From positions 1 through 55,830 of IMG/VR virus record IMGVR_UViG_3300020438_000050: DNA of 55,830 bases; one strand, given 5' to 3'. A program made the translations under genes and the position numbers. The notes under the pieces were generated by a model that saw only the letters and a program-made list of their open reading frames with translations, was not told the origin of the DNA and did not search any database. Positions 15,353 to 55,234 of this stretch are shown here, one piece after another (position 1 is the stretch's first letter; the number at the start of each line of letters is the position of its first letter). The DNA is from a virus. Its lineage: Duplodnaviria > Caudoviricetes.

Positions 15353-15805
15353 ATGACAGATATGATTACATGTAGTGGAGCACTATTCTATACTTTAGAT
15401 ACAAATAGATTTCTTTTTTTACATAGAGCAAACGGCAAACGTAATAACATGTGGGGGCTAGTTGGCGGCACAAATGAAGGATTAGAAACACCATTCGAAG
15501 GTTTAACAAGAGAGATAGAAGAAGAAATTGGCTTTTTGCCAGACATTAAAAAAACTTTGCCTTTAGAAAGTTTTATAAGTGCAGATAGTAAATTTTATTT
15601 CCACACATATCTTTGCGTTGTCCAATCTGAATTTATACCTACCCTTAATAACGAACATGACGGTTATGCATGGAGTGCATTTACCAAATGGCCAAAACCA
15701 TTACATTTTGGTTTACGCAATACATTACAAAGTAAAGTAAATTTAAATAAATTAGAAACTGTATTCCAAACCATAAATTTACTTGACATATCGCATCAAA
15801 CGTAG
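15353..15805 (+). CDS. Nudix hydrolase
   Basis: Nudix box GGTNEGLETPFEGLTREIEEEIG and LNNEHDGYAW. Start revised to ATG 15353, 5 nt after GCTAATTA. Confidence 0.88.
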   Translation: MTDMITCSGALFYTLDTNRFLFLHRANGKRNNMWGLVGGTNEGLETPFEGLTREIEEEIGFLPDIKKTLPLESFISADSKFYFHTYLCVVQSEFIPTLNNEHDGYAWSAFTKWPKPLHFGLRNTLQSKVNLNKLETVFQTINLLDISHQT

Positions 15806-15811
15806 TATAAT
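15783..15811 (+). promoter_or_regulatory. Consensus sigma70 promoter for the heptose operon
   Basis: TTGACA(15783-15788)-17 nt-TATAAT(15806-15811); ATG follows after 6 nt with no SD. Confidence 0.85.
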
Positions 15812-15817
15812 ATAAAG

Positions 15818-16957
15818 ATGAAAGTATTAGTTCTTGGTGACATAATCATCGACAAGTATATCTACGGTACTAGTTCACGCATTAGTCCCGAAGCCCCCGT
15901 TCCTGTAATTACATACAAGAGCGAAGTTGAAACACTTGGAGGGGCAGGACTTGTATATGAGAATCTTAAAAGTTTAGGAGTTGATGTTACATTATTTAAA
16001 ACAAATCAACCACGTAGTATTAAGACACGTATAATATGTGACGGTCATTACATAACCCGTATAGACAACGATAAACATGCAAATTCAAACGTAGTTTTAG
16101 ATGAAGTATTATGTAGTGATTTTTCTAAGTATGATTATGTAGTACTAAGTGATTATAACAAAGGTGTTCTAGATGAATCTTTAAAAATTATAGAACATAT
16201 TAATAAATTTGGTTGTAAAATTATTGTAGACCCTAAAGAACATGCAACTCAGTACAAAAACGCATGGTTAGTAAAACCTAATAATAGTGAATTTACTAAG
16301 TTTGGATTTAGTGATTGGAATGGCAATATCATTACTACTAATGCCAGTGATAATGTAGTTGCTTGTATAGACGATGTTGATTATAATCTTCCTGTTGCAC
16401 AAGTAGAAGTATCAGATGTTACAGGAGCAGGCGATTGTTTCTTAGCAGCATTTGTATATGGCTTAACTAAAAGTTATGATTATATGAAATGTTTAGAGAT
16501 TGCTATAAAAGGTTCTAGATGTGCAGTACAGCACGTAGGCACATATACACTAGCGCACAATGATATTGAAGAGCGTGTAATTTTTACAAATGGTGTGTTT
16601 GATATTATGCACACAGGACATTTTAATTTACTAAAAGAAGCACGTAGTTTAGGCGATAGACTTGTTGTGGGTATAAACTCAGATGCAAGTGTAAAACGTC
16701 TAAAGGGCAATAATCGCCCAGTAAACAACATAAAAAAACGTGTTGAACAAATATCTATATTACCATGGGTAGACGAAGTTCACGTTTTTGAACAAGATAC
16801 TCCTTATGAGTTAATTAAACATATAGCACCTAACTTAATTGTAAAAGGTGGTGACTATACTGTTGAAACCGTAGTAGGACATAATTTAGCTGATGTACAT
16901 ATTATACCTACAGTGGATGGATATTCAACAACACAGATTATAGAGAACAGCAAATGA
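15818..16957 (+). CDS. hldE: Bifunctional heptose-7-phosphate kinase / heptose-1-phosphate nucleotidyltransferase
   Basis: RISPEAPVPV, LSDYNKG, DVTGAGD (PfkB kinase); TNGVFDIMHTGH, GINSDASVKRLKG, KGGDY, STTQII (nucleotidyltransferase). Confidence 0.93.
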   Translation: MKVLVLGDIIIDKYIYGTSSRISPEAPVPVITYKSEVETLGGAGLVYENLKSLGVDVTLFKTNQPRSIKTRIICDGHYITRIDNDKHANSNVVLDEVLCSDFSKYDYVVLSDYNKGVLDESLKIIEHINKFGCKIIVDPKEHATQYKNAWLVKPNNSEFTKFGFSDWNGNIITTNASDNVVACIDDVDYNLPVAQVEVSDVTGAGDCFLAAFVYGLTKSYDYMKCLEIAIKGSRCAVQHVGTYTLAHNDIEERVIFTNGVFDIMHTGHFNLLKEARSLGDRLVVGINSDASVKRLKGNNRPVNNIKKRVEQISILPWVDEVHVFEQDTPYELIKHIAPNLIVKGGDYTVETVVGHNLADVHIIPTVDGYSTTQIIENSK

Positions 16958-17772
16958 AAATATTAGTTACAGGACACAAAGGATTTATTGGATCAAACGT
17001 TGCAAAATATCTGCAACGCAAAGGCCATGATGTAGAAGGTTGGGATTATATTCCTGGTACAATACCTGATCCGAGTGGATACGATTGGGTTATACATCTA
17101 GGTGCAATTACTTCTACAACGTTTACAAACGTAGAAGAAATTATGGAAACAAATTTTGAATTTAGCGTTAGGCTTGCACAAACTTGTGATATGATGGGTG
17201 TTAATATGCAATATGCTTCTAGCGCAAGTGTGTATGGACCCACTACGCATTTTATTGAGCATGGTCCATTACAACCTCAATCACCTTATGCATGGACAAA
17301 GTACCTATTTGATAGATTTGTAATGCAACTTAAGGATGAATTTCAAATAAACATACAAGGTTTTAGATATTTTAATGTATACGGAGAAGGTGAAGAACAC
17401 AAAGGCGATCAAGCAAGTCCTTATACTAAATTTGCATATCAAGCCAAAGACAATGGTGTAATTAAATTATTTGAAGATAGTAATAACTATCGTAGAGATT
17501 TTATATGTGTTGATGATGTGTGTAAAGTACACGAAGCAATGTTAGATATTAATAGTTCTGACATATACAATGTAGGTACAGGACGTTCTGTGAGCTTTGA
17601 ATCTGTAGCACAGGCTATTGTTAACAAGCATGGCGGCAATATAGAATATGTGCCGATGCCAGAAAACATAAAATCACAGTATCAAGAATTTACATGTGCA
17701 AAAATGGATAAACTAAATTCAGTATTGGACATAGATTGGATTAACATAGAGGATTATATACATGGCAAGTAG
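16954..17772 (+). CDS. hldD: ADP-L-glycero-D-manno-heptose 6-epimerase (extended SDR)
   Basis: TGHKGFIGS, HLGAITSTT, YASSASVYG, YAWTK, RYFNVYGEGEEHKG, YQEFTCA; operon context. Confidence 0.85.
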   Translation: MKILVTGHKGFIGSNVAKYLQRKGHDVEGWDYIPGTIPDPSGYDWVIHLGAITSTTFTNVEEIMETNFEFSVRLAQTCDMMGVNMQYASSASVYGPTTHFIEHGPLQPQSPYAWTKYLFDRFVMQLKDEFQINIQGFRYFNVYGEGEEHKGDQASPYTKFAYQAKDNGVIKLFEDSNNYRRDFICVDDVCKVHEAMLDINSSDIYNVGTGRSVSFESVAQAIVNKHGGNIEYVPMPENIKSQYQEFTCAKMDKLNSVLDIDWINIEDYIHGK

Positions 17773-18154
17773 ACTTTCAGGAACAGTAGAAAAAGGTTGG
17801 GGCATAGAATTAATTTGGGCTACTAATGATTTATACTGTGGTAAGCTTATGGTATTTAATAAGCCCGGTGCTAAATTTTCAATGCATTTTCATAAAGAAA
17901 AAGATGAAACATGGTTTGTTAATGAAGGCAGATTTATGGTAAGATGGATAGATACTAAAACAGCAGAGTTGTTCTCACAAGAACTAAAGCCGGGGGATAC
18001 ATGGCATAATCCTCCATTACAACCTCATCAGCTGACAGCTATTACAGCAGGAACTATTACTGAGGTTAGTACTGCTGATTCAGTTGAAGATAATTATAGA
18101 GTCTTTCCAGGTGATAGCCAGAAGGTAGAAAATGAGCCGATACAACCATCTTAA
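17762..18154 (+). CDS. Cupin-fold sugar isomerase-like protein
   Basis: KGWGIE, SMHFHKEKDETW, PLQPHQL, EVST...DNYRV cupin metal motifs. Confidence 0.75.
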   Translation: MASRLSGTVEKGWGIELIWATNDLYCGKLMVFNKPGAKFSMHFHKEKDETWFVNEGRFMVRWIDTKTAELFSQELKPGDTWHNPPLQPHQLTAITAGTITEVSTADSVEDNYRVFPGDSQKVENEPIQPS

Positions 18155-18737
18155 AAATTCTCAACACACTATAGATAATTTTAAAAAAAGCGTTGTAGGA
18201 TTAGATAGAGACGGCGTTATAAATTTAGATCGTGGTACATATACTTGGAAAAAAGAAGACTTTGAGCCTATACCAAAATCTATAGAAGCTGTGTCTTTGA
18301 TTCGACAAAAGGGTCACAAAGTTGTAATAATTACAAATCAAGCCGGCATACACAAAGGACTATATACAGAGGATGATGTAAACACTTTACATCATTACAT
18401 GCTTGACTTATTTGGTCAAGCAGGATGTCCTAGTATAGACGGAATATATTTTAGTGCATCTAATGTAAAACAAGATCCGTTTGCAAAACCTAACGTAGGT
18501 ATGTTTAAAAAAGCAGCCACGGATATTAAAAATTTAAATTGGTCTACAGGATATTATGTAGGTGATAAAATTACTGATTTAAAAGCTGCATTCAAGGTAA
18601 AAGCAACACCTATACTTGTGCGCACAGGTCACGGTGTTGAAACTGAAGAACTATTAAGTAGTAGACATTCTTACAGACCTATTAAAAAACAAACACAAGT
18701 TTATAATAACTTGTGGGATTTTGCACAGGCTCTTTAG
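18132..18737 (+). CDS. gmhB: D,D-heptose 1,7-bisphosphate phosphatase (HAD)
   Basis: LDRDGVIN, ITNQAGI, KPNVGM, VGDKITD, LVRTGHG; lacks the zinc-binding Cys motif of E. coli GmhB. Confidence 0.85.
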   Translation: MSRYNHLKNSQHTIDNFKKSVVGLDRDGVINLDRGTYTWKKEDFEPIPKSIEAVSLIRQKGHKVVIITNQAGIHKGLYTEDDVNTLHHYMLDLFGQAGCPSIDGIYFSASNVKQDPFAKPNVGMFKKAATDIKNLNWSTGYYVGDKITDLKAAFKVKATPILVRTGHGVETEELLSSRHSYRPIKKQTQVYNNLWDFAQAL

Positions 18738-21700
18738 GCCTGTGCTTCACCCCATCTTAGAATAAGGTTTGCATTTGCATCCGCACCCGAAACCTTATAC
18801 ACGTTAATTGCAAGAACATCTGGACCATTTGGGAAGGTTCCTCTGCCACCTAGTGTGGTATTTGTAAGTTCTTTCAATTCACTAAAGTCCACAGTTGATC
18901 TTTCTCCTGGGTTAGCAATAAACGAAAATACTGTTTCGCCCGGCTGTGCAAACGGAGGTTGACTAAATGCAAATTGTATTGTTCCTGTGCCTGCAGCTAG
19001 TGTTCCTGTAAATGCGTTGTTAAACTGTACTTCGTAATATGTTACACTACCAAATATTTTTTGGGATATTGCAGATACACTTGTGTTTGCAGGGAATACT
19101 ACACTTCCGCCGGATTCGGTTACTGGTGTTCCTAGCGTAATACCCGAAGCAGCATAACTAGTTGAGTCTATGTATGCATAGTTCCTGTTTACAAGCGTAG
19201 CATTTCGAGTAATGTCAAATCTATTTGATTGATTTCCATTAATGTTGCCTGATATACGATTTGAAAGTCGAAGATAGCCATAGTCGCCGCTACCGTTTAT
19301 CTGTCCGCCAGTAATAGTTGTGTTAGCTGGAATTCGACCTTGAACGTTATCTACAATAGATGCTCCAAGGACTGCATTAATATCGGTTCCGAATGTATTT
19401 CTAAAGTCTGTTGCGTTAACATAAACTACACTATTTCTTCGATAACTGGTATATATACCACTGTCTAATGTGCCAGTTGTATTAGATATTTGAGTACCTG
19501 TGGTGTTTGTAACAGTGTTATCAGTTGTCCAGTTCACACTACCACCTGATGCAACTTGTGCAAAGCTAGGTTGTCCACCTTGTGCAACGCTTGACAGTCC
19601 TGTCCAACCAACATCTGCTGGATTAATTGGATAGTTTTGTGGATTCAACACACCTTCAATAACAATGCCGCCTTGAATAGGAGTGCCGTCGCTTTCAAAA
19701 CCATCTGATGTAATTTCTAGTCCTTGCAACAACAACTGTGCTCTGTTAAGCAATTCTCTTTCACCTAGGTCGCCAATAATAGCATTAGAAACACTAGGTG
19801 CTAGTCTTAACATAAACGCTGTTTGTTTAATTGTATTTGCATTAAGACCTGTTTCAGCGTATGAGAAAATGTATCCTCTATCTTCGTCAAATCCGCCATC
19901 TGTTAAAAATGCTGAACCCCAGTGTGATATCAACGGAGTAATTGTATTACTAATTAATACTACTCCAGTTTTATCTACGTGTGCGTCCGCTGCGCCTGCG
20001 CTATACGTTCTTTCTGCTCCTGATTGGAAGTTAGTTAGTGCAGTGCCTCTTGTACATCCAGTAAGTGTATTTGTTGTTTTGTCATTAGCAGTAAAACTAA
20101 TAATTTCATTATCGATGTACACAGTTCCAAACTCTGGGAAGAAACTACTATCTAATAACGGAATCGTAGTTTGTGTATTATCTAGTGCTGCTGCAAGTTT
20201 TGCTGGATAGCCTTCGTTAGTAACTTCGTAACGCACAGGCAAGTTACCTGAACGCATAAACGCTTCTGTGTTTACGTTTGAGTTACGCATTCTATGTGCA
20301 AATACAAAGTTACCATCTGAGCCACGTAGCATAAAGTCGATAAAACCAGCACCATACCAACTGTATTGAATACCGATCATTTGCATCTTAGCAATGTCAA
20401 TATCGTAACCACTTGGTCCAGCACCGTCAAGTGTATCTAAGTTAAAGTCTTGCTGTTTCACTTTTTTGTCAACTACTAAATTAGCTTTTGCACCAGTAAT
20501 ATCAGTAACACCTCTAAAATCTGGTGTTACATTGATTTCTGTTTGGCTAACAACGTGTGATACAACATGTGTCATACCTCTAATAATAATTCTATCGCCA
20601 GCCTTTGTTTGGTCTCTAAATCTTGTTGCTGTACCAGTAACAGTATTGCTGTCAACTTCAATAGCACATGTTCCTGCTAATTGTTGTGTACCTGTACGTT
20701 GATTTACACTAACGTTTTGTCCATCAAATTCCCAAAAAATACCATTTTGATCATCAAAAATACCAGAACGTACAGTTGCGCCGTGCCATGCAACAACACT
20801 CATTTGGGAGCCAAAACCAAGTACAGCTTCTTGTTTCATTACCGGAACAGTATCTTCTACTGTGCCTACATTTCTTCTTGATTTTAATTCAGCTAGCGCA
20901 ATTTTCACTCGGTTATCTATAGTTGCAGTTTGACTAATACCTTGCAAATGATTTGTAAGTGCAGTTTTGTCATCTACTGTTATAGAATCGCTTTCGTTAA
21001 AATCGCCCCACTTACGACCGTCATATGCTGTTTCATTAAGGAAAAAGTCGTGTACATCGCTTGTGTTAGTATCAAGTAATACTTCGTCAAATACTTGTAC
21101 TAACGGCCAATCAGCAATTGCTGTTGCTTCTAAAAATTCAGTGTCATCAGCAAGACGTCTGAGTGCCCTCACTTTGAAAGTTCTTTCATTTATAACTTCT
21201 TGTACAGTATAATCAAACTCGGGGGGTACTACTGTTTCTGTACCACTGTTGTAGCCGCTACTTTCTACAGCTAATAATCTAATTATACCGCCTACTTGAA
21301 CTCCGTGATCGTTATCGTCTGTCGTAATAGTAATTAAAGAATTAACTTCTGTGCCATCGGCAGTTACACTTGCTAAATCATAGCTTGGTGCAAATAGAGC
21401 ACCAGTTGTGTACATAATACCTTTACCTGATTGGTAACGAATATATTTTTTACTTTGACGTATTGCTTGCGCTCCGTGCTGCGGGCCGCCAGTTCCTAAC
21501 TGAACGCCGCCGTCAAATGGCCTATGAATAAAGAAACTATCTGGCCTAGTATAGAATGTTCCTGAAATAACATCTGAAGCACTAGTTGAGATTGATCCTG
21601 CAGCTCTTGCTACAAATCTTAATTGATTAGTTGAAGGTATATTAGTTGCAAGGAAAGCACCCGATGCAAGTAAATGGTTGTTTGATCCATCATCTGAACC

Positions 21701-24700
21701 AATAACTGTTATGAAACTGTTGCCAGGAACAATACCATGTGGAGTATCAAATGTTGCTTCAATTGTTGCTAACTCGCTGAAGCTAATAGATGTAGTTTGT
21801 GGCACAGGTTCTGTTGTTACTTCACTCATTGTAAATGTACAAATTAATGCTACACTATCACCCGGATTAGCACCTGTAAAGTTTGGAGTATACGATGTTA
21901 CTGCACCCGCGTTTACACCGGTTACAAAAAACGTTAAATCGTGTGTACCATCACCGTCTAATTGTGATCCAGGTACAAACAAAGTATTACCAATTTCATA
22001 GTTTGTGCCGCCTTGAGTAATTAATATATTATCATATATGCCGTTTATTCTTCTAATAGTAAACTCGGCGCCTGATCCTGCCGGTACATCAGCTTGTGGT
22101 GCTACATTAGTATATGCTAATGTGCCGTTATTACCACTGCCTGTTGAGTTGAATGTTAACACAGCACCTGTGGCGTCCACTGTTAGCACTGTGATTATAA
22201 TATCGTTAGTTGGTGTTGCACCGCCAACTAAGTTACCTAATATTTTTAATTCTTGGTTCGGCGCATAATTGGTGCCGCCCGTAGCAAGTGTTATCGTATA
22301 TACTGTTGCATTTAAGTCAACATCAAATGTTGCTCCAGTTGGGTTAATAATTTCGATAATACCTGTTGTAAATGATTCATTATTTACAGATACACCAGCT
22401 GCGCTTGATGCTGTAATAGATCCACTACCGTCTACGTTATCAATTGTTACAGTACAATCGTTAGTTGTTGATGCGCCTCCTAGGTCTGCACCATCAACTG
22501 TAAATTGATCTCCAATACTATATCCTGCGCCGCCGTTTAGTAAAGGAATAATTGCTTGGTACACAGTGCCTACACGTCTTATATCTACAGTTGCGCTTGT
22601 GCCCCCTGCGGCTGAAGTTGTATAAGGTACATCTGAATAAACAACATCAGCATCTGCGCCTGTGCCAGAAATACTTATTCCTGTAATTGCACCGGTTCTT
22701 CCGCCCACAGTACCTACACTAGTAACTGTACATATCGCATCATTAGTTGAATCAATGCCTCCAAGGTTTGAACCTAATATTCTAAATGTATCATTTGCTA
22801 TAAAGTCATCAGATACATCACCTGCATTTAGTGCTATTGAATATACATTATTGTTAACTGTAACGTCTACTAATACGTCTCGACCTTGGCCGCCTTCGTA
22901 TATTGCGCCGGAACCGTTAAATGATGCTGTTCCGCCAACGGCTGTACCTGACAAAGTAACAGTTGTTATTGCTCCTAACGGACTTGTAGCAACACTGTCA
23001 ACATAAATTAAACAGTCATTTGTAGGAGTTGTTCCGCCTAGAATCGTACCTAATACTTTTAGTCTATCCCCAGCTTTATAATCAACACCGGCTGTAGCAA
23101 TTGCATCTAAAGAATAAGATCCACCAGATCTAGTAATGTCAAATGTTGCACCTAGACCATCTACTGGTTCGGTGCTAGGTAATACTCCGGTATATGTTTT
23201 AGTATTAGAAGCTAAGTTTGATGTTAATCCGCCACTCAGTGTAAGTGTATTACCTACAATATTATTAACAAATATAGCTTGTCCGTCGCCGCGATCTAAT
23301 GCAAGGTTTGCAAGTATACCTGTAGAATCTACTACTTCAATATCAGTATCTCCAATTACTGCATTTTCTGCAATTTCTAATGTACTAAATTCGCCGCCGC
23401 CAGATGAGTTATCAACAAAGTTTGTAACCTGTGCGCCTAGTGGTATTCCGGTGCCAGTTAACGGTGAGCCAACTTCTGGACTATTACCGTCATATGGCAG
23501 TGTGTTAGAACCTGTCGGAACAGACAATTCAGTTATCATTGTTCCTGCACTACCATTACTTACAACTTGGAAATTTGCATTAGTAATGCCAGCGCCTGTA
23601 TAAAATCCAGCTTCTCTTAACTGCGTGTATCCCGTAGAAAGTACATCACCATTATTAGTGCCAACTTTTGACTTTGCATAATATGTAAAAGTATTGTCAG
23701 TTGGTGTTTCGACTATAACAAAACTACCTTCTCCTCTAGCTGCTCCCGAAACTGCATTTTCTAAAGCTTTAATTGTTATAGGAGTTCCTGAATCAAAACC
23801 ATGTGGTGCAACTGTTGTTACTGTAATTAATGATGCACCTACGCCACTTGTTCCTGCACTTGCATCAGTTACAACTGATAATACTTCGGAACTAGTTCCA
23901 GGTATTTCGTATACACTAGGATACCCTCTCATCATAGCAATTGCAGACCATTTAGTAGGCTGAAGCCCGTACTCAAAGTCAGCATCGAGCATACTTAGTG
24001 GCGGTGCAATACGCATACGCTCAATAGCATCTGTACCAAAATCGTATGGTCTTACTGTTTGAACACTTTTGCCGTTTTCTATTTTTTCTACAAAAATTTG
24101 TATATCATCAGTTTCTGATTGATCTTCAGTGTTGATATTAAGCCATAACATAGTGACTGCGTCAGTTGTTTGTAAATAAGACTTAAAGTTTTCGTTAGTA
24201 CCTTTTGTTTGTAATTCAACCTTTGCGCCTGCATTAACATCAGCAAAGTTATAAATGATATTGTTTGTAGTTGTATTTGAAGCAATTAAAATTTCATCTT
24301 GATCGTATCTACCTTGGAAAGATAGTTTACCAATTGTATTTTCTTCATATGTTGGCAAGCTTGATACACCGTTGTGTATTACGTTTATAACAACATTACT
24401 TAACGTATCTATACGAGTGCTTGCAACCGCTTCTCCGTTGGTTGAATTTGTAGTTTGTGTAACTTCACTATTCAACACTTGCGGATATGTAGTATTTTGG
24501 AATATATAATCTGTAAGTAAGCGTTGAATAAGTGCATGGGATGCTAATTCTGCACCTCTATCGCCGTCAACTTGAGCAACTCCGTTGTCCCAATAGTAAT
24601 TTACATACTTGTATGTTTTTTCGTTGCCGCCATATCGTAAGTCATTCTTATATGCATCTAATATTAGTCCAACATCTCGTTCGCACTTATCTGCACTTGT

Positions 24701-25483: not shown

Positions 25484-25486
25484 TTT

Positions 25487-45035: not shown

Positions 45036-45407
45036 TTATGTTCCACTTGTTGACGAATTATCATCGTAAGTGTGTGATCTATTAATGCTTGCTACTAGCT
45101 CACCTTCTGAATCTATATAATACCAAATATTTGTTTCGTCCCATTTGTATTGTTCGTAGTTTAAATTACTGTAAACTGGTTCGTGAGCAACGTTTCGGCC
45201 TTCGTAAAAATCTGCGCCTCTTTCAAAATTATCATAGTCACTTGTATTTACTCCAGGCTTATTAATTTGGATACTATCACTATGATTCATTTGGTCAAGT
45301 TTTCCTAAGAAAAGTTCGCCCTTGTCTGTTCTACGCAAACCGTAAAAATATCTATTTTTTACTTGCTTTTGTACCTCTTCTGGCGATTGTCCTAAATATG
45401 ATGTCAT
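45036..45407 (-). CDS. Small hypothetical structural/connector protein
   Basis: 123-aa ORF tightly packed in the fibre operon; SD-like AAGGGG. Confidence 0.6.
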   Translation of the reverse strand: MTSYLGQSPEEVQKQVKNRYFYGLRRTDKGELFLGKLDQMNHSDSIQINKPGVNTSDYDNFERGADFYEGRNVAHEPVYSNLNYEQYKWDETNIWYYIDSEGELVASINRSHTYDDNSSTSGT

Positions 45408-45417
45408 TACTTTCCCC

Positions 45418-45747
45418 TTATACTATGTCTACGTAACTAATTACTGCGTCTAAAGAATCATCTTGATCAGCTTGCACAAGCAAAGTATTAGACGGTGCAA
45501 GAATTAATTTTTCTCCTGCACTTAACGCCCTCAAACTAGAATTAGCAGGAACCATTACATCTTTCATAAAATGTCCTTGCACACTTGTATCGTCATTAAT
45601 TAAAATATTAGCATAAATTACATTTTCAGTTAAGTTTGCTAAATTAAAACCAATAATAGTTGATCGTGTAGCTGAATCTGTTTCTATTGCTACAATTGGC
45701 AGTACACCAATGTCTTTAATTACTTTATTTTTAAATATTGTTGCCAT
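45418..45747 (-). CDS. Small fibre-adaptor-like protein (paralogue 2)
   Basis: STIIGFNLAN...VPANSSL...EKLILAPSNTL...VISYVDI. Confidence 0.6.
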   Translation of the reverse strand: MATIFKNKVIKDIGVLPIVAIETDSATRSTIIGFNLANLTENVIYANILINDDTSVQGHFMKDVMVPANSSLRALSAGEKLILAPSNTLLVQADQDDSLDAVISYVDIV

Positions 45748-45751
45748 TTTT

Positions 45752-48700
45752 TTATCCTAATAATATTACATATTCAATTGCTAATTCTTCTGCTGCAGAA
45801 TAACTAATCGATCCAGAAGTACCTGCTACAGAAACCCAAGTAGTACCATCATATATTTCTAAGTACGCTTGCTGGGTATTGAAACGAACCATACCTGTTT
45901 CTCTATAAGCTGCGGCAGGTCTTTCTGTGTTTGATCCCACAGGTACAACAAATCCATTTGTACCTTCAATTTTAAAATATCCGCTTCCTGTTTGTTGAAA
46001 CAATAACGGACTGTCTGCAAGTGTGTTAGTAATAGTGCTGTCTTTAAATGAAACATTATCAAACGCAACTGCTCCTGTACCATTTGCAGATAATGTTAAA
46101 TTAGTGTCAGCTGTAGTTATACCAACTACATTGCCGTCAATGTATATATCATCTACATCAATTCTAGGTGTTTCTAATGTTGTTGCATTTATACTTAATC
46201 TTTCTGCGCCTGAAACATACATTCTAATAGTATCATCATTTGCTCCTGGTGTAAGCTCTGGAGTAATATATGTATCTTGATCTAAATCATATACACCGTT
46301 TAATGCTGTCCAATTTCCGTTATAGCCTTCAAATAAATTTGTGTCTGTATTATAACGAATCATACCGTTTGCAGGCGTAGGACGACTAGCTGTATTTCCT
46401 GTTGGCAGCTGTAAGCTACCTGTAGATGTTACTTTGATATTGCCGCTAGCACTATTTAAATTAATATCTCCTGATAAACTACTAAGTGTATTTCCACTTA
46501 ATCTTAGATTACCTGTATCTATTTCTGTCCCTGTAAGCGTTGTTGTACTAGATCCAGTAGTGATAGTTAAACCACTAGTTGTGTCAATATTAAATTCGCT
46601 GCTGGTGAAGTCTACTGTTCCGTCTTCTTGATTGACATGGAATAAATCACCTACTCTAAAGTCACCTTTATGATCAACTGAGCTATATCTAATTTTAGCA
46701 TTGTTTAATTCAGTAACTTCTTGGCTTTGCACAACTGCTGTTGTATCATTTGTAACTTCTTTTCCTGTACCAATGTATGCAAAATTCTGTGATATCAAGT
46801 ACATTAATATACCACTACCGTCGCCATATGCTCCGTAATTGCCGTAAACATTAGCACTTGCTATTGATCTTACTTCGCCGCCAAAATCAGTTTTATCTGC
46901 TAGTGTAACAAAATTAGCTGTTGCTCCGCCGCTAAACCTAAGGTCTTGAGATTGTGTTGCGTCATCAGTAATTGTTTCTGAACTATCATCTGCATTATTA
47001 AAATGTAATAGTAATACTGTATTTGTATCGCTAACAAATGCAGAACTTACTGCTCCAAAACTAGATGTATATCTTCCTAAGCCTTTTGTTATACGAACTT
47101 CGTCTATGTTGCCATCTAAAAATTCTGCTGAAGCATTCCATTTAGTTCCTATTAAGAATGGTTTAGCCGTTGCTAAGTCTGTTGATACAGTTCCTGTTGC
47201 TTCTTCAGTACCATTAACAAATATTTTCATTGTTGTGCCGGTACGTGATACAGCAACATGATACCATGTACTTGTAGTGAGTGTTGTTGATCCAGTAAGC
47301 ACAGTTGCTCCGTTAATATAAACTTTAGGAACACCTGCATCTACATTTAAATATAATCCAACATCGGTGTCTGCACCAGAACGGAAATCAAATAAACTTC
47401 GCACTCCTGTAACTGTATCAAAGTAGAAAAATCCTTCTACTGTAAAGTCACCTGTTCCAAACCCAAAATCATTATTAGATGCAACACCTACGTAATCTTC
47501 AGTACCATCTAATATTAAACTACTTGTACCAAACTTTTTAATTGCTGTGTCTGTTACAGGATTTTGATACCTAGTAACAGTTTTTCCACTTCTTTCTGTA
47601 GCTACTTGTAACGCTGACAAATTGCCGTTTACATAAAATTTATTATCTGCATCAACTGAATCTACAGTTCCGCTTGCTAGCAAAGTAGTGCCGTCAGTAT
47701 CATAATAAGAAAAAGTTTGACTCGGAGCTATAGTTCCAACTAAGCCGTCTACTCTAACAGCAGTTTTACCAGTACCTTTAAGTCCTGTGGCGCCGTCTAC
47801 TGCATACAATCCTTTGTTTGCAAAGTAAGTAAAACAGTTTAACCATTCTACTCTAACACCGTTTGTAATAGTCAGAGCATCTACTCCTGGCGTAATAAAA
47901 GTTACACTATGAAATAAACAGCCAGCTTCTCTTGACCCAGATGTTGCTACAGCACCATCAAGATATGCACCCTTGCCTGCATCACCAGAATCAAATCCTC
48001 TAGGATCACTGCCTGTTGTTGTGGAGCCTGCTGTAATTACTGAAACATTTCTTACATAAGGTGATCTTGAAGTAACTGTAAACCCAGTAGCAAATTTAAA
48101 TGCGTAACCTGTAAAGAAGTCTTTTATTGTTAAATCTTCTACGGTGCTTTCGCCATTAAGATAAAATGCATCGTTATTTTGTGTAATTGCAGTAGGTGTA
48201 ATGTTTACACCTCGCATAGAATGACCTTTGACTGTAACTCCTGCAGGAATTGTCATTGGAAATACTTCTTGATATGTCCCGGGATATATATGTACTGTGT
48301 CGCCGTCTGTAGCTTGCGTTAACGCTTGTGATATACTAGCATACGGGTCATTTGGATGTGTTCCTGTGTTTACATCGTTTCCGTTCTCAGCAACATAAAA
48401 TATATTACCTTGTCTTAGATTTAAATCTATTCCGTCAATTGCAATTTCGTCAGCTTGGACAGTACCAGCATATACTGTGCTACTATACACTTCATTCCAT
48501 TGTTTACCTGCTGTGTCTGGGTTTGATCCAAGAGCATATGTGTCTGTAATATCTGGTATAATATCTGATGCAATTTCTGCGTTGAATGTTACATTGTCAG
48601 TATCTGCATCACCTATAGTAATATTACCATCTGCTGTAATGCTACCAGTTGCATTAATATCGCCGTATACATTTGTATTAGCATAAACTTCTACAGTACC

Positions 48701-49087
48701 TGTGCCATTAGGTCTTAACTCTAACGGTGAGTTAGACACTGTAGTTTTAATCTGATTGTTTATTAACTCTAAGTCATCTACGTGTAATTTATTTTGATAT
48801 ACAACACTGTTAGTTGCTGATGTTCCAAGTGTTAATATATCTTGTGTAGTAGATATTCCTGCATCGGAAATAGTAATATCTCCTAGTGTTGCAGAATTTG
48901 TAACGTTGAGTGTGGGTGTTCTGGTTGTGCCAGTAACATCTAAATCATATTGAGGCGCTGCATTGTTAATACCAATACGGCTGTTATTAACATCTAGATA
49001 TAATAAGTCGTTCTCAAATGCAAGATTTACTCCTTCACGAAGTAAGTTTGCCTTTAAGAGCGGTCCACTAATTCGACCAATAGCCAT
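45752..49087 (-). CDS. Tail fibre/baseplate protein with LamG (concanavalin-like) domain
   Basis: GTGDFTVEGFFY...WYHVAVSR...IFVNG...GNIDEVRITKG; LPTGNTASRP...GMIRYNT...FEGY repeats; paralogue of 49246-51705. Confidence 0.78.
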   Translation of the reverse strand: MAIGRISGPLLKANLLREGVNLAFENDLLYLDVNNSRIGINNAAPQYDLDVTGTTRTPTLNVTNSATLGDITISDAGISTTQDILTLGTSATNSVVYQNKLHVDDLELINNQIKTTVSNSPLELRPNGTGTVEVYANTNVYGDINATGSITADGNITIGDADTDNVTFNAEIASDIIPDITDTYALGSNPDTAGKQWNEVYSSTVYAGTVQADEIAIDGIDLNLRQGNIFYVAENGNDVNTGTHPNDPYASISQALTQATDGDTVHIYPGTYQEVFPMTIPAGVTVKGHSMRGVNITPTAITQNNDAFYLNGESTVEDLTIKDFFTGYAFKFATGFTVTSRSPYVRNVSVITAGSTTTGSDPRGFDSGDAGKGAYLDGAVATSGSREAGCLFHSVTFITPGVDALTITNGVRVEWLNCFTYFANKGLYAVDGATGLKGTGKTAVRVDGLVGTIAPSQTFSYYDTDGTTLLASGTVDSVDADNKFYVNGNLSALQVATERSGKTVTRYQNPVTDTAIKKFGTSSLILDGTEDYVGVASNNDFGFGTGDFTVEGFFYFDTVTGVRSLFDFRSGADTDVGLYLNVDAGVPKVYINGATVLTGSTTLTTSTWYHVAVSRTGTTMKIFVNGTEEATGTVSTDLATAKPFLIGTKWNASAEFLDGNIDEVRITKGLGRYTSSFGAVSSAFVSDTNTVLLLHFNNADDSSETITDDATQSQDLRFSGGATANFVTLADKTDFGGEVRSIASANVYGNYGAYGDGSGILMYLISQNFAYIGTGKEVTNDTTAVVQSQEVTELNNAKIRYSSVDHKGDFRVGDLFHVNQEDGTVDFTSSEFNIDTTSGLTITTGSSTTTLTGTEIDTGNLRLSGNTLSSLSGDINLNSASGNIKVTSTGSLQLPTGNTASRPTPANGMIRYNTDTNLFEGYNGNWTALNGVYDLDQDTYITPELTPGANDDTIRMYVSGAERLSINATTLETPRIDVDDIYIDGNVVGITTADTNLTLSANGTGAVAFDNVSFKDSTITNTLADSPLLFQQTGSGYFKIEGTNGFVVPVGSNTERPAAAYRETGMVRFNTQQAYLEIYDGTTWVSVAGTSGSISYSAAEELAIEYVILLG

Positions 49088-49197
49088 CTCTTCTCCTCAA
49101 TACGGGGATCCTGTCCCTCTAGCCGAATTCTCACCCTTACGGTTCTTTGCTGGCTAACCACAGTCTGACCCTGCAACGGTTGGTCGACTATTGCATT
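49088..49197 (-). ncRNA. Candidate structured (pseudoknotted) 5' leader
   Basis: GC-enriched 110 nt between GATAAATA (49203-49210) and ATG 49087, with several hand-found helices. Confidence 0.5.
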
Positions 49198-49245
49198 AAT
49201 AATATTTATCAAAAATTAAGTATTATGGGGTGTTAGGTTATAATT

Positions 49246-51705
49246 TTAGCCCAAAACCATTATGTAAAGATCTACTAAATCTCTAATAGTTTGGTCGTTG
49301 ACTGTGCCATCTTCACCAGCAGATCTTTGCCAATCTTCACCGTTGTATGTTTCAAGATAAGCTTCATCTGTATTCCAGCGGGTTTCACCTAAAGTAGGAG
49401 TTGGAGTTTGTGATGCAGTATTGCCAAAAGGAACAACTAGTCCAGTAGTACTGTCAAATTTTACATATCCTAATCCTGTGCTTTCGACTATTACATTATT
49501 ATTAGAAGTATTTTCTATAGTTGCATTTTTAATAGTTAAATCATCTAAAACTAATTTGCCTGTTCCGTTTGAGCGTAAGTCTAAATCACTATTGCTATCA
49601 GTTGTTGTAATTAGATTATTACTAAACATAATATCACCACTAGATAAGCTATTTAAAGATAATGTTGTGCTATCTAATGTAGCTTGCAATACATTATTAG
49701 ATCTAAACAAAATAGAATTATTAGTAGGATGTGCATCAACACTAGTTTGTCTGTCGTCGCTGTAAATGCCACCGAAGCTTATATTTCCAGTTGCAGCATA
49801 TCCTTCAAATAATGAGGAATCGGTATTATACCTTACTGATCCTGTTACATCTGTTCTATCAATATCTGGACCGTTACTAAGAACTAAACCAGGATTAGTA
49901 CTTAAATTTAAAATACCTGTAGTAGGTTTTATTTCTAATTCGCTATCAGTAGTTGTTACAGTATTTCCTGTTAATCTAATACTGCCTGTGTCTATACGTA
50001 ATCCATCTAGGTATGTTACATCAAAATTATCTCTAATTTGTATTTGGCTAAGTCCAGAAAAGTTTGCACTATCAATTGCTAAACTTGTAGAGCCAGTATC
50101 ATAATCTGCAAAAAATGAATCGCCTACTTTAAATTTTCCTGTAGCATCAGTACTTACATTATATATTTTTCCTAAATTTAATTCAGTAATTTCATTTGCT
50201 TCAACAGTTAATGTTTTATCATTAGTTACATCTTTGCCTGTGCCAATATACGCAAAGTTATGACCAATAAGATACATAAGAGTATCAGTACCGTTTGCCT
50301 CTGCTCCTTTGTTACCGTATACACTTGCTGAACCAATTGATCTTATTTCTGCTCCAAACGTTGTACCATCATTTGCTTTGCCTAGTGTTCCTTGTAGTGC
50401 ATGTAATCCGATATTAGCAAAATAAGTAAACGAATTTAACCATTCTACTCTAACACCATTTGTCATTGTTATAGCGTCTACGCCCGGAGTAATAAATGTT
50501 GCAGCATGAAATAGCATACTAGGATTTGTTGTTGCAGCGTTTACTACTGAGCCGTCTATTAATGCTCCTTTGCCTGCATCGCCTTGCGCAAATCCCCTTG
50601 GGTCACTTGCACTTGTCACACTTCCTTTTGTAATAACTGTAATGTTTTGTATGTAAGGTGATCTATCTGTAATAATTGCATCAGCTGCAAAAGTAAATGC
50701 ATAGCCTGGGCTATAAAAATCTTTGATCGTAACATCAGTTACCATACAATTTTGATTCAACTCAAATGCGTTGTTTGTATTAGTTGCAGCTGTTGGTTTA
50801 ATTATTACATTTCTTAAATCATGTCCTCTAATTGTTACTCTTTCTGGTACAACTAACGGAAATATTTCTTCATACTCACCTGGATAAATGTGTATTGTTA
50901 CAGGGCCTCCGGAACTTGCATCAACTTGTGACAATGCATGTGCCAAAGTTCTAAAAGCTCCGTGCTGATGATCACCTACGTTTGTATTATTGCCTAGCGT
51001 ACTTACATAGAATATGTTTCCGGATCGTGCTTGTAAATCTCCACCGCTTGTCATTACAATTCTGTCAGAATAAATTATATCACTGTACAAACTTTTAGTA
51101 TACGTTTCTAACCATTTTTTAGTACTACTACCTAATTTGCTAGTATTTCCTACATCAGGAATTAAATCACTATTTAGATCGGCTTCAAAAGTAACATCAT
51201 CCTCGTCGCTGTCGCCTAATGTTAGGTTACCTCCAAAAACAATATTTCCTGTAGAGTGTAGAGCGCCGGTTATATCCCAATCAGAATATATATCAACAGT
51301 TCCTGCTCCAGCAGGGCGTAATTCTATATTTGTATTTGTTGTCCTAGTGCTTATTGTATTATAATCTAGAAGTAAATTATCAGTTGCTATAGATGTTGCT
51401 TCTATTGTTTGTCCTGCTGTTAAAGACATGTTTGAACCGGTAAAATAGTTTATAGCACTATTTGCAATATCAAATGTATCTATACTTGTTGTTGTTGAAA
51501 TTAAATCTGTAGATTGAAGATCTGTTGGTAATTCTAAATCAAAATCAGGCGCATCATTATTTACGCCAATGCGCATATTGTTTACATCTAAGTGCAAGAT
51601 AGGGACATCTGACACTTGATTTTTAAAGTTTAAGTCGTGTCCGTTGCGTAATAAGTTATCTTTAAGTACGCCGCCACCTATACGGCCTGTTTGTGGTTCT
51701 GGCAT
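49246..51705 (-). CDS. Tail fibre/baseplate protein, paralogue of 45752-49087 without LamG
   Basis: GRIGGGVLKDNLLR vs GRISGPLLKANLLR; shared SPY, DPRGF..GDAGKGA, NGVRVEWLN.FTYFAN, RSI.SA.VYGN. Confidence 0.78.
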   Translation of the reverse strand: MPEPQTGRIGGGVLKDNLLRNGHDLNFKNQVSDVPILHLDVNNMRIGVNNDAPDFDLELPTDLQSTDLISTTTSIDTFDIANSAINYFTGSNMSLTAGQTIEATSIATDNLLLDYNTISTRTTNTNIELRPAGAGTVDIYSDWDITGALHSTGNIVFGGNLTLGDSDEDDVTFEADLNSDLIPDVGNTSKLGSSTKKWLETYTKSLYSDIIYSDRIVMTSGGDLQARSGNIFYVSTLGNNTNVGDHQHGAFRTLAHALSQVDASSGGPVTIHIYPGEYEEIFPLVVPERVTIRGHDLRNVIIKPTAATNTNNAFELNQNCMVTDVTIKDFYSPGYAFTFAADAIITDRSPYIQNITVITKGSVTSASDPRGFAQGDAGKGALIDGSVVNAATTNPSMLFHAATFITPGVDAITMTNGVRVEWLNSFTYFANIGLHALQGTLGKANDGTTFGAEIRSIGSASVYGNKGAEANGTDTLMYLIGHNFAYIGTGKDVTNDKTLTVEANEITELNLGKIYNVSTDATGKFKVGDSFFADYDTGSTSLAIDSANFSGLSQIQIRDNFDVTYLDGLRIDTGSIRLTGNTVTTTDSELEIKPTTGILNLSTNPGLVLSNGPDIDRTDVTGSVRYNTDSSLFEGYAATGNISFGGIYSDDRQTSVDAHPTNNSILFRSNNVLQATLDSTTLSLNSLSSGDIMFSNNLITTTDSNSDLDLRSNGTGKLVLDDLTIKNATIENTSNNNVIVESTGLGYVKFDSTTGLVVPFGNTASQTPTPTLGETRWNTDEAYLETYNGEDWQRSAGEDGTVNDQTIRDLVDLYIMVLG

Positions 51706-54225: not shown

Positions 54226-54243
54226 ATAGTATTTATCACAAAC

Positions 54244-54277
54244 AAAAAAAGCCCGACACAATTAAGTATCGAGCTTT
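54244..54277 (-). terminator. Rho-independent terminator
   Basis: Minus strand AAAGCTCGA...TCGGGCTTT running into a T7 tract. Confidence 0.7.
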
Positions 54278-54490
54278 TAATAATAATGTGATAGGTTGGA
54301 ATTTGAGAATACCAACAACCTCCTAGTAGCTCTCGCCATATTCGGAGGAGCCTAGCATCGGATAGTTACTTCCAAAAACATATCTTTGTATCTCTACACT
54401 CATATGTTGCCACTACAGCTACTAGCCAAGTTGTGTCACTACGCAACACCGTTCCTTGCACTATCTAACTTAGGCCGTCGCCTAACTTAT
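54250..54490 (-). ncRNA. Candidate stand-alone structured RNA (~240 nt)
   Basis: Region without a long ORF, bounded by a sigma70-like promoter and a terminator, containing many helices. Confidence 0.55.
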
Positions 54491-54496
54491 GTATTA

Positions 54497-54524
54497 ACTA
54501 TAACATCATTACAAACAATGTCAA
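54497..54524 (-). promoter_or_regulatory. Sigma70-like promoter
   Basis: TTGACA-16 nt-TATAGT with TGn extended -10; the -35 box overlaps the upstream TGA stop. Confidence 0.65.
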
Positions 54525-55234
54525 CCACTTTTTTTACTTTTTAATCCTTTTTTCCAACCGTTAGTAATAGATTGTGGAAATATTTTTATAGGATGTTGTC
54601 TATCATCTGCATTAATATCGTCTGACTTAGAAAATTTAGACGTTGATATTCTTTCTAAGCACACCGCTTGGGGAGGTTCGCAAACATAAAGCGGAAGTGC
54701 AGTCGGAACCATCATCATTAAATATTGATCTAACCCTTTCTCTATTCCAGTACGTAATGTATCATTCCATAACCACTCAGCAGATTGAGGAGTAATTGCA
54801 TAAGCATGACATCCAATAGATCTTTTTATACGCACAAGATCACTTGCCGGTGCTGGCGGATTGTAGTCTTCTATATTTTTTACACGATGACCAAATGTAA
54901 CCACTGACATATTAGGAATATGTATATCTTTTACATTACCTTTGACAATAGCATCGTGTTCTAGTATAATGCAGGGTTTGCCAATTTCAATAATACGTTT
55001 CCAACACTTAATATGAGATGCATGAGCACAGCAATTTCCCATCCTATTCACATATGTCTTTTGTTTTTTTGCTCCTACTGCCTTAAAAGCTTCTCTAGGT
55101 TGTAAAAATTCTATAGCTTCCATATATTCATATTCAAGGTTTTGATCATCACAAGACCTTGCACACATATCTGCATACTCGACGGATATAGGAACCTGTA
55201 GCCTACGTATAATAATAGCTCTATCTATTTTCAT
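54521..55234 (-). CDS. Glycosyltransferase family 25-like
   Basis: CAHASHIKCWKRII...IILEHDA...GCHAYAITPQSA...LDQYL. Confidence 0.75.
   Translation of the reverse strand: MKIDRAIIIRRLQVPISVEYADMCARSCDDQNLEYEYMEAIEFLQPREAFKAVGAKKQKTYVNRMGNCCAHASHIKCWKRIIEIGKPCIILEHDAIVKGNVKDIHIPNMSVVTFGHRVKNIEDYNPPAPASDLVRIKRSIGCHAYAITPQSAEWLWNDTLRTGIEKGLDQYLMMMVPTALPLYVCEPPQAVCLERISTSKFSKSDDINADDRQHPIKIFPQSITNGWKKGLKSKKSG

Follow-up and report, generated by a model that had tools for sequence, protein, structure and literature searches.

A candidate carbamoyl-heptose pathway beside the tail-fibre genes of a marine jumbo phage

What does a tailed marine phage do with genes for an activated heptose, a glycosyltransferase-like protein and a sugar O-carbamoyltransferase, all of them lying among its tail-fibre genes? 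This question is raised by the virus record IMGVR_UViG_3300020438_000050 of IMG/VR, whose whole length of 55,830 bp was analysed (hereafter the window; completeness estimate 17%) and which is a fragment of a marine jumbo myovirus of the T4 superfamily. The enzymes are best read as one pathway making and transferring carbamoylated heptose, and a tail fibre or adhesin of the phage itself is the most likely acceptor, a tentative view (roughly 45%) that draws on genomic context and on surface-charge arguments. The cassette as such is not new, being known at the annotation level in cyanophages as 'LPS genes' (LPS, lipopolysaccharide), and the window represents a new lineage of a known, uncharacterised system. 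An earlier note, made from the letters of the window, had proposed that the phage makes its own heptose donor early and builds a carbamoylated heptose glycan on its fibres; the genes it named (hldE, hldD, cupin, gmhB, the GT9-like and carbamoyltransferase genes, a pair of 2-oxoglutarate (2OG) oxygenases, a GT25-like gene and the fibre genes) were all found in their places with Pfam, NCBIfam and PHROGs. The elements that carry the argument are:

31312..32235, minus strand: GT9-fold glycosyltransferase-like protein, 307 aa (PF01075, Glyco_transf_9, E 0.0036)
29492..31312, minus strand: O-carbamoyltransferase of the TobZ/NodU/CmcH type, 606 aa (Carbam_trans_C, E 1.1e-59; Carbam_trans_N, E 7.5e-23)
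15783..15811, plus strand: promoter, perfect sigma-70-type TTGACA-17-TATAAT
15818..16957, plus strand: hldE, 379 aa, fused heptose-7-phosphate kinase and heptose-1-phosphate adenylyltransferase (PfkB, 5.6e-18; CTP_transf_like, 4.1e-19)
16954..17772, plus strand: hldD-like short-chain dehydrogenase/reductase (SDR) (TIGR02197, E 2.9e-70, 237 bits against a cut-off of 274.6; Epimerase, E 7.2e-39)
17762..18154, plus strand: cupin (Cupin_2, E 3.3e-8)
18132..18737, plus strand: gmhB, heptose 1,7-bisphosphate 7-phosphatase of the HAD-IIIA type (NF006506, E 3.9e-39, 134 bits against a cut-off of 178)

The GT9-like protein and its carbamoyltransferase partner

The GT9-like family comprises 2939 proteins at E <=0.001, and an IMG/VR scan by pattern and tblastn detected at least 586 relatives, from which 80 viral loci were kept (81 with the window). 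In 74 of the 80 the GT9-like gene is directly followed by the carbamoyltransferase gene in the same orientation, with a gap of -50 to +100 nt in 71 loci and of about 230 nt in three with a longer glycosyltransferase. In the window the stop codon of the GT9-like gene and the start codon of the carbamoyltransferase gene overlap (TAATG), which fits the translational coupling claimed in the earlier note. Among the six loci without a following carbamoyltransferase, one contig ends 2 nt past the glycosyltransferase gene, and five (L036, L078, L080, L081 and L083) lack it despite at least 6.5 kb of downstream sequence. The phage collection has 55 records with the GT9-like gene (23 cyanophage/marine, 31 Vibrio and 1 Aeromonas), and all 23 cyanophage/marine records carry the carbamoyltransferase beside it. 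A scan of prokaryotes (one genome each for 185,579 species), which rests on two conserved peptides and detects only this GT9-like clade, yielded eight true relatives (L088-L095). All are metagenome-assembled genome (MAG) contigs of 6.5-20 kb, spread over six unrelated phyla (assigned to Verrucomicrobiales, Gammaproteobacteria, Methanobacteriota, Flavobacterium, Chitinophagales and Actinomycetota) with the phage cassette and fibre genes, and they are probably viral DNA mis-binned into MAGs. The GT9-like/carbamoyltransferase pair is a fixed module, found almost exclusively on viral DNA. A predicted complex of the two proteins scored 0.00, which gives no answer and weighs neither way.

The carbamoyltransferase matches both of its Pfam domains, the Kae1-like Carbam_trans_N and the YrdC-like Carbam_trans_C, above cut-off, and solved structures of the family are recovered with it (7xb6 at E 3.7e-52, TobZ at E 2e-37). 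Residues H16, H116, H117, H120 and D139, which we take to be metal ligands, are invariant in 26 sequences. Its match to NodU (E 1.1e-41) amounts to 143 bits against an equivalog cut-off of 1000.

Sequence comparison places the GT9-like protein below family thresholds: it reaches 17.1 bits with PF01075 (cut-off 22 bits; only residues 197-238 match) and 25.8 bits with TIGR02201 (E 5e-6, cut-off 170.2), the family profile gave chance-level matches against PDB sequences (best E 0.12), and hhalign of the family against single WaaC or WaaF sequences aligned only the C-terminal motif, with a probability of 3-10%. The fold, however, is that of GT9. A search of its AlphaFold 2 model (34 homologues in the alignment; predicted local distance difference test score, pLDDT, 88.3) with Foldseek placed only GT9 structures on top (TibC, Veillonella GT9, WaaC and WaaF, E 3e-8 to 1e-6), TibC being first at E 3.3e-8. 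VIA-align gave Z scores of 21.8 for the Veillonella GT9 (3tov), 19.7 for TibC, 19.6 for WaaF and 18.3 for WaaC (root-mean-square deviation 3.2-3.8 over 252-275 residues); GT9 structures together with a plant NDH subunit spanned Z 17.7-21.8, whereas other GT-B proteins reached at most 12.3. The donor-site motif D217-S-x-G-Q-H222 (D217-S-V-G-Q-H222 in the window) is invariant in 34 sequences and aligns with D261-T-G-L-S-H of WaaC and its WaaF equivalent (general form D-S/T-G-x-x-H).

The N-terminus aligns with that of WaaC without gaps, G12, V14, L15, P19, A20 and L21 being identical, but the catalytic Asp13 (WaaC numbering) is replaced by Arg13. This arginine is invariant (34 of 34 aligned proteins; 81 of 81 open reading frames (ORFs) from the window and the 80 viral loci) and is found also in the homologues of four cyanophage isolates, one Vibrio phage and one Aeromonas phage. 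D13 is stated to be present in every heptosyltransferase and D13A to lower activity 4688-fold (review PMC5713226), and TibC D110A is inactive (PMC4358343). An invariant S-R160-S may correspond to the WaaC/WaaF lysine near the anomeric carbon (Lys192-equivalent), with which it coincides in alignment A2, in a gapped region. The N-terminal (acceptor) domain has a median net charge of -3 (range -7 to 0 in 34 sequences), compared with values of +8, +5 and +8 in WaaC, WaaF and WaaU of E. coli; in PMC5713226, acceptor binding by HepI is credited to positive residues of this domain, thought to hold the anionic lipid A-Kdo (Kdo, 3-deoxy-D-manno-oct-2-ulosonic acid). The domain is conserved, with a mean majority fraction of 0.755 against 0.706 for the C-domain. 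Thus, the fold and donor site are those of GT9, while the catalytic residue and acceptor surface are unlike those of a classical LPS heptosyltransferase. The GT9-like transferase named in the earlier note thus has the fold and donor motif of GT9, lacks the catalytic aspartate and falls below the Pfam threshold. The motif and the co-occurrence with heptose genes suggest ADP-heptose as the donor.

Two known systems are instructive here. The WaaC/WaaF enzymes with WapO, which belong to the 7-O-carbamoyl-heptose core of Pseudomonas, share with the window the GT-B/GT9 fold, the ADP-heptose-site motif, the HldE/GmhB/HldD pathway and a NodU-family carbamoyltransferase gene beside heptosyltransferase(-like) genes; the phage protein differs from WaaC/WaaF in the change of Asp13 to Arg, an N-domain that is acidic and not basic, a virus-restricted clade, a sub-threshold Pfam GT9 match and the lack of other LPS-core genes. 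TibC/AAH, the family of bacterial autotransporter heptosyltransferases (BAHT) responsible for Ser O-heptosylation of adhesins, includes the top Foldseek match (E 3.3e-8, Z 19.7), and PMC4358343 presents TibC as a case of ADP-heptose-dependent glycosylation of a beta-rich surface adhesin encoded beside its enzyme, which makes it a precedent. The phage protein, in contrast, aligns only to TibC residues 97-392, has Arg as the equivalent of D110, and its family lacks the four-Cys iron finger (only C283 is invariant, and C16 nearly so).

Donor genes, their promoter and their linkage with the pair

A nucleotide-heptose pathway encoded by the phage is supported by the operon hldE-hldD-cupin-gmhB, in which neighbouring genes overlap or abut. 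For each of the three pathway enzymes the top NCBIfam match is the matching ADP-heptose enzyme, and each scores under the curated equivalog cut-off. In HldE both domains are present and best matched by HldE models, with 278/521, 174/345 and 158.1/181.5 bits against equivalog cut-offs (the first being NF008454, E 1.2e-82, 278 bits against 521); the best match of the HldD-like SDR is ADP-glyceromanno-heptose 6-epimerase. The predicted HldE belongs to an abundant 378-381 aa family of marine metagenomes, found on contigs of up to 345,575 bp.

The start of the earlier note's feature, position 15783, is the -35 box of the perfect promoter, whose end lies 6 nt ahead of the hldE ATG, so that the hldE mRNA would be leaderless or nearly so. 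Two perfect TTGACA-17-TATAAT sites occur in the window against 0.08 expected, and none of 100 shuffles contained two. In relatives G009 and G006 (HldE 88% and 61% identical to that of the window) the -35 and -10 boxes are identical while the spacer and short leader differ, a pattern expected as the footprint of a functional promoter. Sigma-70-type promoters are markers of early genes in T4-like phages, and this conserved one fits early expression of the operon. For the donor made early by the phage, as claimed previously, the pathway genes and the promoter speak in favour; the sub-cut-off scores and the lack of GmhA speak against. A NUDIX gene at 15320-15805 was considered as a further member of the system and rejected, as it accompanies gp15 in 14-15 loci with or without heptose genes.

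GmhA, the sedoheptulose-7-phosphate isomerase of the sugar isomerase (SIS) type, is the gap in the pathway: SIS_2 had no match in the window, and SIS_2/TIGR00441 had none in five complete cyanophage genomes with heptose genes (0/5), in a search whose controls matched 10-11 of 14 genomes. Cyanophages do have genes annotated as this enzyme:

L002:16903-17247, L005:21459-21794, L001:16651-16977 and L006:14762-15085: genes annotated 'phosphoheptose isomerase' (P-SSM2, S-SSM7, Sf-FS3 and S-CAM1 set)

All four match TIGR01689, a HAD model named 'capsule biosynthesis phosphatase' (E 1e-8 to 8.5e-6), and no isomerase model was among their matches at E <=1. The annotation is, on these profile matches, probably wrong; the phosphatase match would make the annotated isomerase the counterpart of the GmhB of the window, which those cyanophage genomes do not have. 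The cupin is the only additional gene of the pathway region that is conserved. It adjoins HldD in all 24 loci having both and has a complete metal-cupin motif with H42, H44, E49 and H89 invariant; its weak matches are to WbuC cupins (E 0.0014) and to the phosphomannose isomerase (PMI) domain of GMP-PMI (E 0.036). The fold search with its model (pLDDT 88.7) was mixed (quercetinase, oxalate decarboxylase, D-lyxose/mannose isomerase, the CapF cupin domain, KdgF and phosphomannose isomerase, E 1e-7 to 2e-6) and does not separate an isomerase from a tailoring enzyme. Two candidate roles are weighted about equally, namely a PMI-like replacement of GmhA, and an SDR and cupin pair that tailors the nucleotide-heptose, for which CapF and RmlC/RmlD are precedents.

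The donor genes and the pair are linked but separable. Of the 81 loci, 54 have a heptose gene no more than 10 kb from the pair (in the flanks retrieved), and at least four gene orders occur among them; in 44 of 80 loci a GmhB homologue is found at most 10 kb away from the GT9-like gene, and HldE is present in 22 of the 23 cyanophage/marine records, the exception being a 4,094-bp fragment. The four closest relatives of the window all have the same gene order, and each encodes the fused hldE at a more distant place on its contig. What most often comes after the carbamoyltransferase is GmhB (31 loci at position +2) or a sulfotransferase (14 at +2). One or two sulfotransferases follow it in 17 loci in all (e.g. 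L059:12625-13437 and L067:17203-18024); APS (adenosine 5'-phosphosulfate) kinase is encoded in 11 loci, all of which also have a sulfotransferase, and only 2 of the 17 have heptose genes of the cupin/HldD/kinase type. In these loci the fibre-side module seems to occur in a sulfation version. Nod-factor enzymes offer a parallel, combining carbamoylation (NodU/NolO) and sulfation chemistries beside a glycosyltransferase, with NodH sulfating and NodPQ supplying PAPS (3'-phosphoadenosine-5'-phosphosulfate); their acceptor and biological context are unrelated, and the phage carbamoyltransferase is far from the NodU cut-off (143 against 1000 bits). Vibrio phage SBP1 and Aeromonas phage HJ05 have a GT9-like homologue without hldE. 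In S-CAM8 a carbamoyltransferase lies among fibre genes with four 2OG oxygenases, and GT9-like or heptose genes are missing nearby. Synechococcus phage S-T4 has the converse, a cluster of kinase, nucleotidyltransferase, HAD, cupin, epimerase, three glycosyltransferases, a methyltransferase and a predicted membrane protein, and the annotation of its 17-kb stretch contains no GT9-like gene and no carbamoyltransferase.

The cyanophage 'LPS gene' cassette (P-SSM2 genes 307-314, S-SSM7 genes 120-133, S-CAM1, S-CAM3 and Sf-FS3) has in common with the window the GT9-like protein (there 'hypothetical', T4-GC 302), a Nol-like carbamoyltransferase, heptose kinase, nucleotidyltransferase, cupin (there 'cysteine dioxygenase'), nucleotide-sugar epimerase, 2OG oxygenases and the tail-fibre/neck position. 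Identity between the window and cyanophage proteins is 40-43% for the glycosyltransferase and 47-60% for the carbamoyltransferase. The differences are several: hldE of the window is fused, kinase then transferase, whereas the cyanophage genes are split and in reverse order; gmhB stands in place of the small EcbF-type HAD phosphatase; the donor operon lies about 10.7 kb from the pair on the opposite strand; and the glycosyltransferase is without the Pro/Gln/Lys-rich C-terminal tail of the cyanophage proteins. In PMC3037559, P-SSM2 and S-SSM7 have 'large lipopolysaccharide gene clusters' with the carbamoyltransferase among the sporadic genes, and clusters of nucleotidyltransferase, kinase, cupin and epimerase genes are jointly present in three phages, functional genes or 'stuffer DNA' being left undecided there. 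Glycosyltransferases and rfaE were placed in a tail-fibre 'host recognition cluster' of pelagimyophages and cyanomyophages, with modification of the host O-chain proposed (PMC7029224), and another cyanophage with heptose genes has been described (PMC7378029). No acceptor assignment for the cyanophage heptose and carbamoyltransferase genes was found in the partly accessible literature, whose coverage lacks most subscription journals. The cassette was not seen in S-SM1, S-PM2 and Syn9, the phages with virion proteomes in the available portion of PMC3037559.

The tail-fibre neighbourhood and the phage

The remaining features of the region, in the order of the window, are:

18734..25483, minus strand: 2249-aa virion structural protein (phrog_5838, E 7.6e-236), between the two enzyme modules
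26883..28324, plus strand: two genes of 243 and 237 aa (p243 and p237), DUF6065-like by language-model features only
28328..28897 and 28906..29505, plus strand: two tandem 2OG-Fe(II) oxygenases of the 2OG-FeII_Oxy_5 / TIGR02466 type
32308..34872, minus strand: group of three fibre-associated genes immediately before the GT9-like gene on its upstream side (acidic protein of 234 aa, Gly/Cys-rich protein of 505 aa and tail-fibre-like protein of 106 aa)
34888..51705, minus strand: giant tail-fibre / baseplate-wedge-like genes (1902, 1464, 1111 and 819 aa; CBM5/12, LamG and beta-helix domains)
54521..55234, minus strand: GT25-like protein (PF01755, E 2e-8, 34.8 bits against 24; residues 24-104 of 237 only)

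Fibre and baseplate genes, as called with PHROGs, lie between the enzyme genes. Clustering of all ORFs of the 81 loci, independently of any annotation, showed that the place directly upstream of the GT9-like gene is most often taken by a tail-fibre assembly chaperone (Phage_tail_APC), which stands at position -1 in 17 loci and is present in 22. In the four cyanophage genera represented by P-SSM2, S-SSM7, S-CAM1 and Sf-FS3 the order is tail fibre, small and Gly-rich proteins, GT9-like protein, carbamoyltransferase, nucleotidyltransferase, kinase, small HAD, cupin, epimerase and gp13-15, which sets the cassette between the fibre genes and gp13-15. In SBP1, an N4-like phage of Vibrio (Schitoviridae), a homologue that is shorter and also has Arg13 is flanked by a tail-fibre gene on one side and a tail gene on the other, the carbamoyltransferase not being nearby. 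Homologues of the 106-aa protein in marine records of the phage collection occur only in carriers of the GT9-like gene (18/18). The giant fibre and baseplate-wedge-like proteins are candidate acceptors. The fibres had been called Ser/Thr-rich, which holds to a moderate degree only (Ser+Thr 17.6-21.4% in five large fibre/structural proteins against 8-15% in the enzymes). The 505-aa protein (33023-34540, minus strand), encoded two genes upstream of the GT9-like gene, contains 18% Gly, 26 Cys and poly-Gly runs with a weak Gly_rich_2 match; shorter Gly_rich_2 paralogues lie at the same place in S-SSM7, and the protein may be a receptor-binding tip. A small gene at 45036-45407 had no match in phages by tblastn.

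Other neighbours are doubtful members. The p243 and p237 genes sit between the carbamoyltransferase and hldE in four relatives (L011, L012, L015 and L017); neither protein matches Pfam even at E 5, similarity between the two was not detectable (E 0.17), and DUF6065 had no mention in the literature searched. The 2OG oxygenases recur within cyanophage cassettes; enzymes of their type are encoded close to the pair in no more than 18 of the 81 loci, and they are common in cyanophages generally (14 of 16 cyanomyoviruses according to PMC3037559). Hydroxylation by these enzymes ahead of glycosylation or carbamoylation is possible but unsupported. The GT25-like protein, which the earlier note had counted in, is a doubtful member, as it has no homologue in the 80 related loci and no tblastn match in the phage collection; membership is not shown for it or for the 2OG genes. 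The second perfect TTGACA-17-TATAAT site (54942-54970, plus strand) lies antisense within the GT25-like gene and possibly gives rise to an antisense transcript, no ORF of at least 50 aa being found downstream on the plus strand. Nearby, the Rfam freshwater-2 RNA motif (RF02980) matches at 54133-54215 (minus strand; 65 bits against a gathering score of 49.9), directly upstream of a 153-aa gene (53674-54135) and at the end of a non-coding stretch of about 385 nt (up to about 54521), which is headed, on the minus strand, by a near-consensus promoter (TTGACA-17-TATAGT) and is possibly a long structured leader or small RNA.

The identity of the phage follows from its gene content (a T4-type large terminase, a 1145-aa sheath, the gp15 tail-sheath stabiliser, and giant fibre and baseplate proteins), and a full genome of about 330 kb is likely. 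The lineage differs from that of the cyanophages: the terminase most resembles those of PA5oct, a jumbo phage of Pseudomonas, and its kin (53% identity), followed by those of Sinorhizobium, Agrobacterium and Vibrio jumbo phages, the best matches not being cyanophages. The enzyme region had no megablast match in phages. Near-identical DNA (at least 91% of sampled words) is present in 15 marine/seawater DNA runs from 11 studies (2014-2025), and three of these runs may have given rise to the record. Contigs with short stretches 100% identical to the operon occur in three RNA-recorded runs and one guessed to be RNA, and such contigs cannot prove transcription, starts or strand; one RNA-library contig covers the hldE promoter, DNA carry-over being possible in such libraries. 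The packaging/sheath module holds further peculiarities. The tail sheath protein (7594-11031, minus strand; 1145 aa) is far above the usual length and matches the sheath C-terminal domain only in its last ~100 residues, and the module contains a gene for a TnsA-like endonuclease (4736-5173, minus strand; E 1.2e-22) and a small ORF (11081-11416, plus strand) with a weak HNH_3 match (E 8e-4, under the Pfam cut-off), both likely homing or mobile endonucleases.

Fibre, envelope or DNA: weighing the acceptors

The preferred reading takes the three units as one sugar-decoration pathway at the distal end of the tail-fibre (host-recognition) gene cluster. The operon hldE-hldD-cupin-gmhB would make ADP-activated glycero-manno-heptose in the infected cell, rendering the donor independent of the host; the GT9-fold enzyme would move the heptose to an acceptor other than the anionic lipid A-Kdo, and the TobZ/NodU-type enzyme would then O-carbamoylate the product with carbamoyl phosphate and ATP. 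The acceptor would be the phage's own tail-fibre or adhesin protein encoded immediately upstream, giving a fibre decorated with carbamoyl-heptose. The gene identities, the fold, the motifs and the conservation of adjacency and promoter are observed; in this scheme we infer which donor is used, that the enzyme is catalytically competent with Arg13, in what order the reactions run and what the acceptor is. A fibre is favoured as acceptor because of the chaperone upstream (17 loci), the SBP1 homologue between tail genes and the acidic N-domain. The concept has a parallel in mycobacteriophages, in which phage-encoded glycosyltransferases modify the structural proteins of the virion and the enzymes are encoded in the structural module, and collagen-type hydroxylation followed by glycosylation resembles the 2OG oxygenases beside glycosyltransferases; the glycosyltransferase families, sugars and hosts of the mycobacteriophages are different.

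Several observations weigh against the fibre pathway. With Arg in place of the catalytic Asp, the GT9-like protein may work by a different mechanism, or may be no transferase at all, and its fold is about equally close to TibC, which has a protein acceptor, and to WaaF and WaaC, whose acceptors are LPS. The heptose enzymes fall under their equivalog cut-offs, so the sugar could be a related one, and the window lacks a SIS-type GmhA. The 2OG oxygenases are near the pair in a minority of loci, and the GT25-like protein is absent from all related ones. Co-occurrence of heptose genes and the pair, named in the earlier note as a check and seen in 54 of 81 loci and 22 of 23 records, breaks down in a complete 372-kb relative, whose GT9-like gene has no adjacent carbamoyltransferase and which has no rfaE adenylyltransferase domain, and in S-T4, whose heptose genes lie away from the fibres, near hli genes (L100, record 73105-84424); moreover, linkage within one hypervariable island can give co-occurrence without shared function. 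Finally, no result shows any acceptor or directly separates the fibre from the host envelope, and published interpretations favour remodelling of the host LPS or O-chain (PMC3037559 and PMC7029224).

In that published view, transferred to the window, carbamoyl-heptose would be added to the LPS core, O-chain or another envelope glycan during infection, so as to block superinfection or to reduce the progeny lost on infected cells and debris, and the linkage to fibre genes would reflect that receptor-binding specificity and receptor masking must be inherited together. We regard this as a serious if doubtful alternative. It is how these genes have been read in P-SSM2, S-SSM7 and S-SM2 ('LPS gene clusters', PMC3037559) and in the 'host recognition cluster', whose glycosyltransferases were proposed to modify the host O-chain (PMC7029224), and the inner-core HepII of Pseudomonas carries an O-carbamoyl group, with the putative carbamoyltransferase WapO in the heptosyltransferase cluster (PMC8005017). 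An early-type promoter of the donor operon suits a change of the cell surface during infection, and in S-T4 the heptose genes stand with several glycosyltransferases and a predicted membrane protein, away from fibres. Set against this is that an LPS enzyme derived from a host should have cellular relatives, whereas the GT9-like clade is almost confined to viral DNA; that its acceptor domain is acidic and conserved across phages of cyanobacteria, Vibrio, Aeromonas and unknown hosts despite their differing LPS cores; that the gene of the Vibrio N4-like phage lies within a late tail operon; and that neither a flippase nor a ligase or membrane protein was seen among the genes adjoining the pair in the window.

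The invariance of Arg13 can also be taken to mean that the GT9-like protein is not a heptosyltransferase at all and is instead a nucleotide-sugar-binding scaffold, a fibre-maturation factor or an enzyme of non-GT9 transfer to an anionic nucleophile (phosphate, carboxylate or thiolate), the carbamoyltransferase then acting on a different hydroxyl, e.g. one made by the neighbouring 2OG oxygenases. A plant NDH subunit with a GT9 fold, presumably non-enzymatic, scores as high as WaaC (Z 17.7-18.3); S-CAM8 pairs its carbamoyltransferase with four 2OG oxygenases without GT9-like or heptose genes, and the 17 sulfotransferase/APS-kinase-type loci include heptose genes only twice. Nevertheless, the invariant donor motif and the many invariant N-domain residues suggest an active site under selection, and heptose-supply genes have been recruited beside the pair repeatedly and in different gene orders, which makes this explanation unlikely. 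Hypermodification of DNA, with heptose and/or carbamoyl placed on modified bases of the phage genome, is highly improbable. T4 does glucosylate 5-hydroxymethylcytosine with a GT-B enzyme. A different clade of the same carbamoyltransferase family acts on 5-hydroxymethylcytosine in DNA, this phage NodU/TobZ-type subfamily making 5-carbamoyloxymethylcytosine; that DNA-acting clade, detected by MetaGPA, is flanked by thymidylate-synthase-like and deaminase genes, whereas carbamoyltransferases on unmodified contigs lie by glycosyltransferases (PMC8670742). In the window the flanking gene is a glycosyltransferase, none of the thymidylate-synthase-like or deaminase Pfam families was found in the 44 ORFs scanned, and the pair stands within a structural module in every context examined.

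The pathway that ends on the phage fibre can be extended to a fuller proposal, in which a virus-only GT9 branch with Arg for Asp O-heptosylates the phage's own fibres, carbamoylation follows (sulfation with phage-made PAPS in sister lineages), and the donor is made independently of GmhA through a metal cupin isomerase. Taken as a whole this is more doubtful than the envelope explanation; if true, the host-recognition organelles of T4-like and jumbo phages, which are abundant in the sea, would bear a 'glycan code' of chemical decorations.

The points new here are the fixed virus-only pair, the Arg-for-Asp site with its acidic acceptor domain, the chaperone/fibre neighbourhood in three phage groups, the alternative sulfation flavour, and the mis-annotated isomerase with the missing GmhA. 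These genes have stood in cyanophage genomes since 2005 as 'LPS genes' or possible 'stuffer DNA', and the Arg-for-Asp site, the GmhA-less heptose pathway and the interchangeable carbamoyl and sulfate modules give testable handles on an old annotation problem. If the envelope is the target, the cassette would be a widespread oceanic device for superinfection control or receptor masking. If the virion is the target, it would represent protein O-heptosylation outside bacterial autotransporters and the first decorated tail fibres in ocean myoviruses, with a bearing on host range, adsorption and particle stability.

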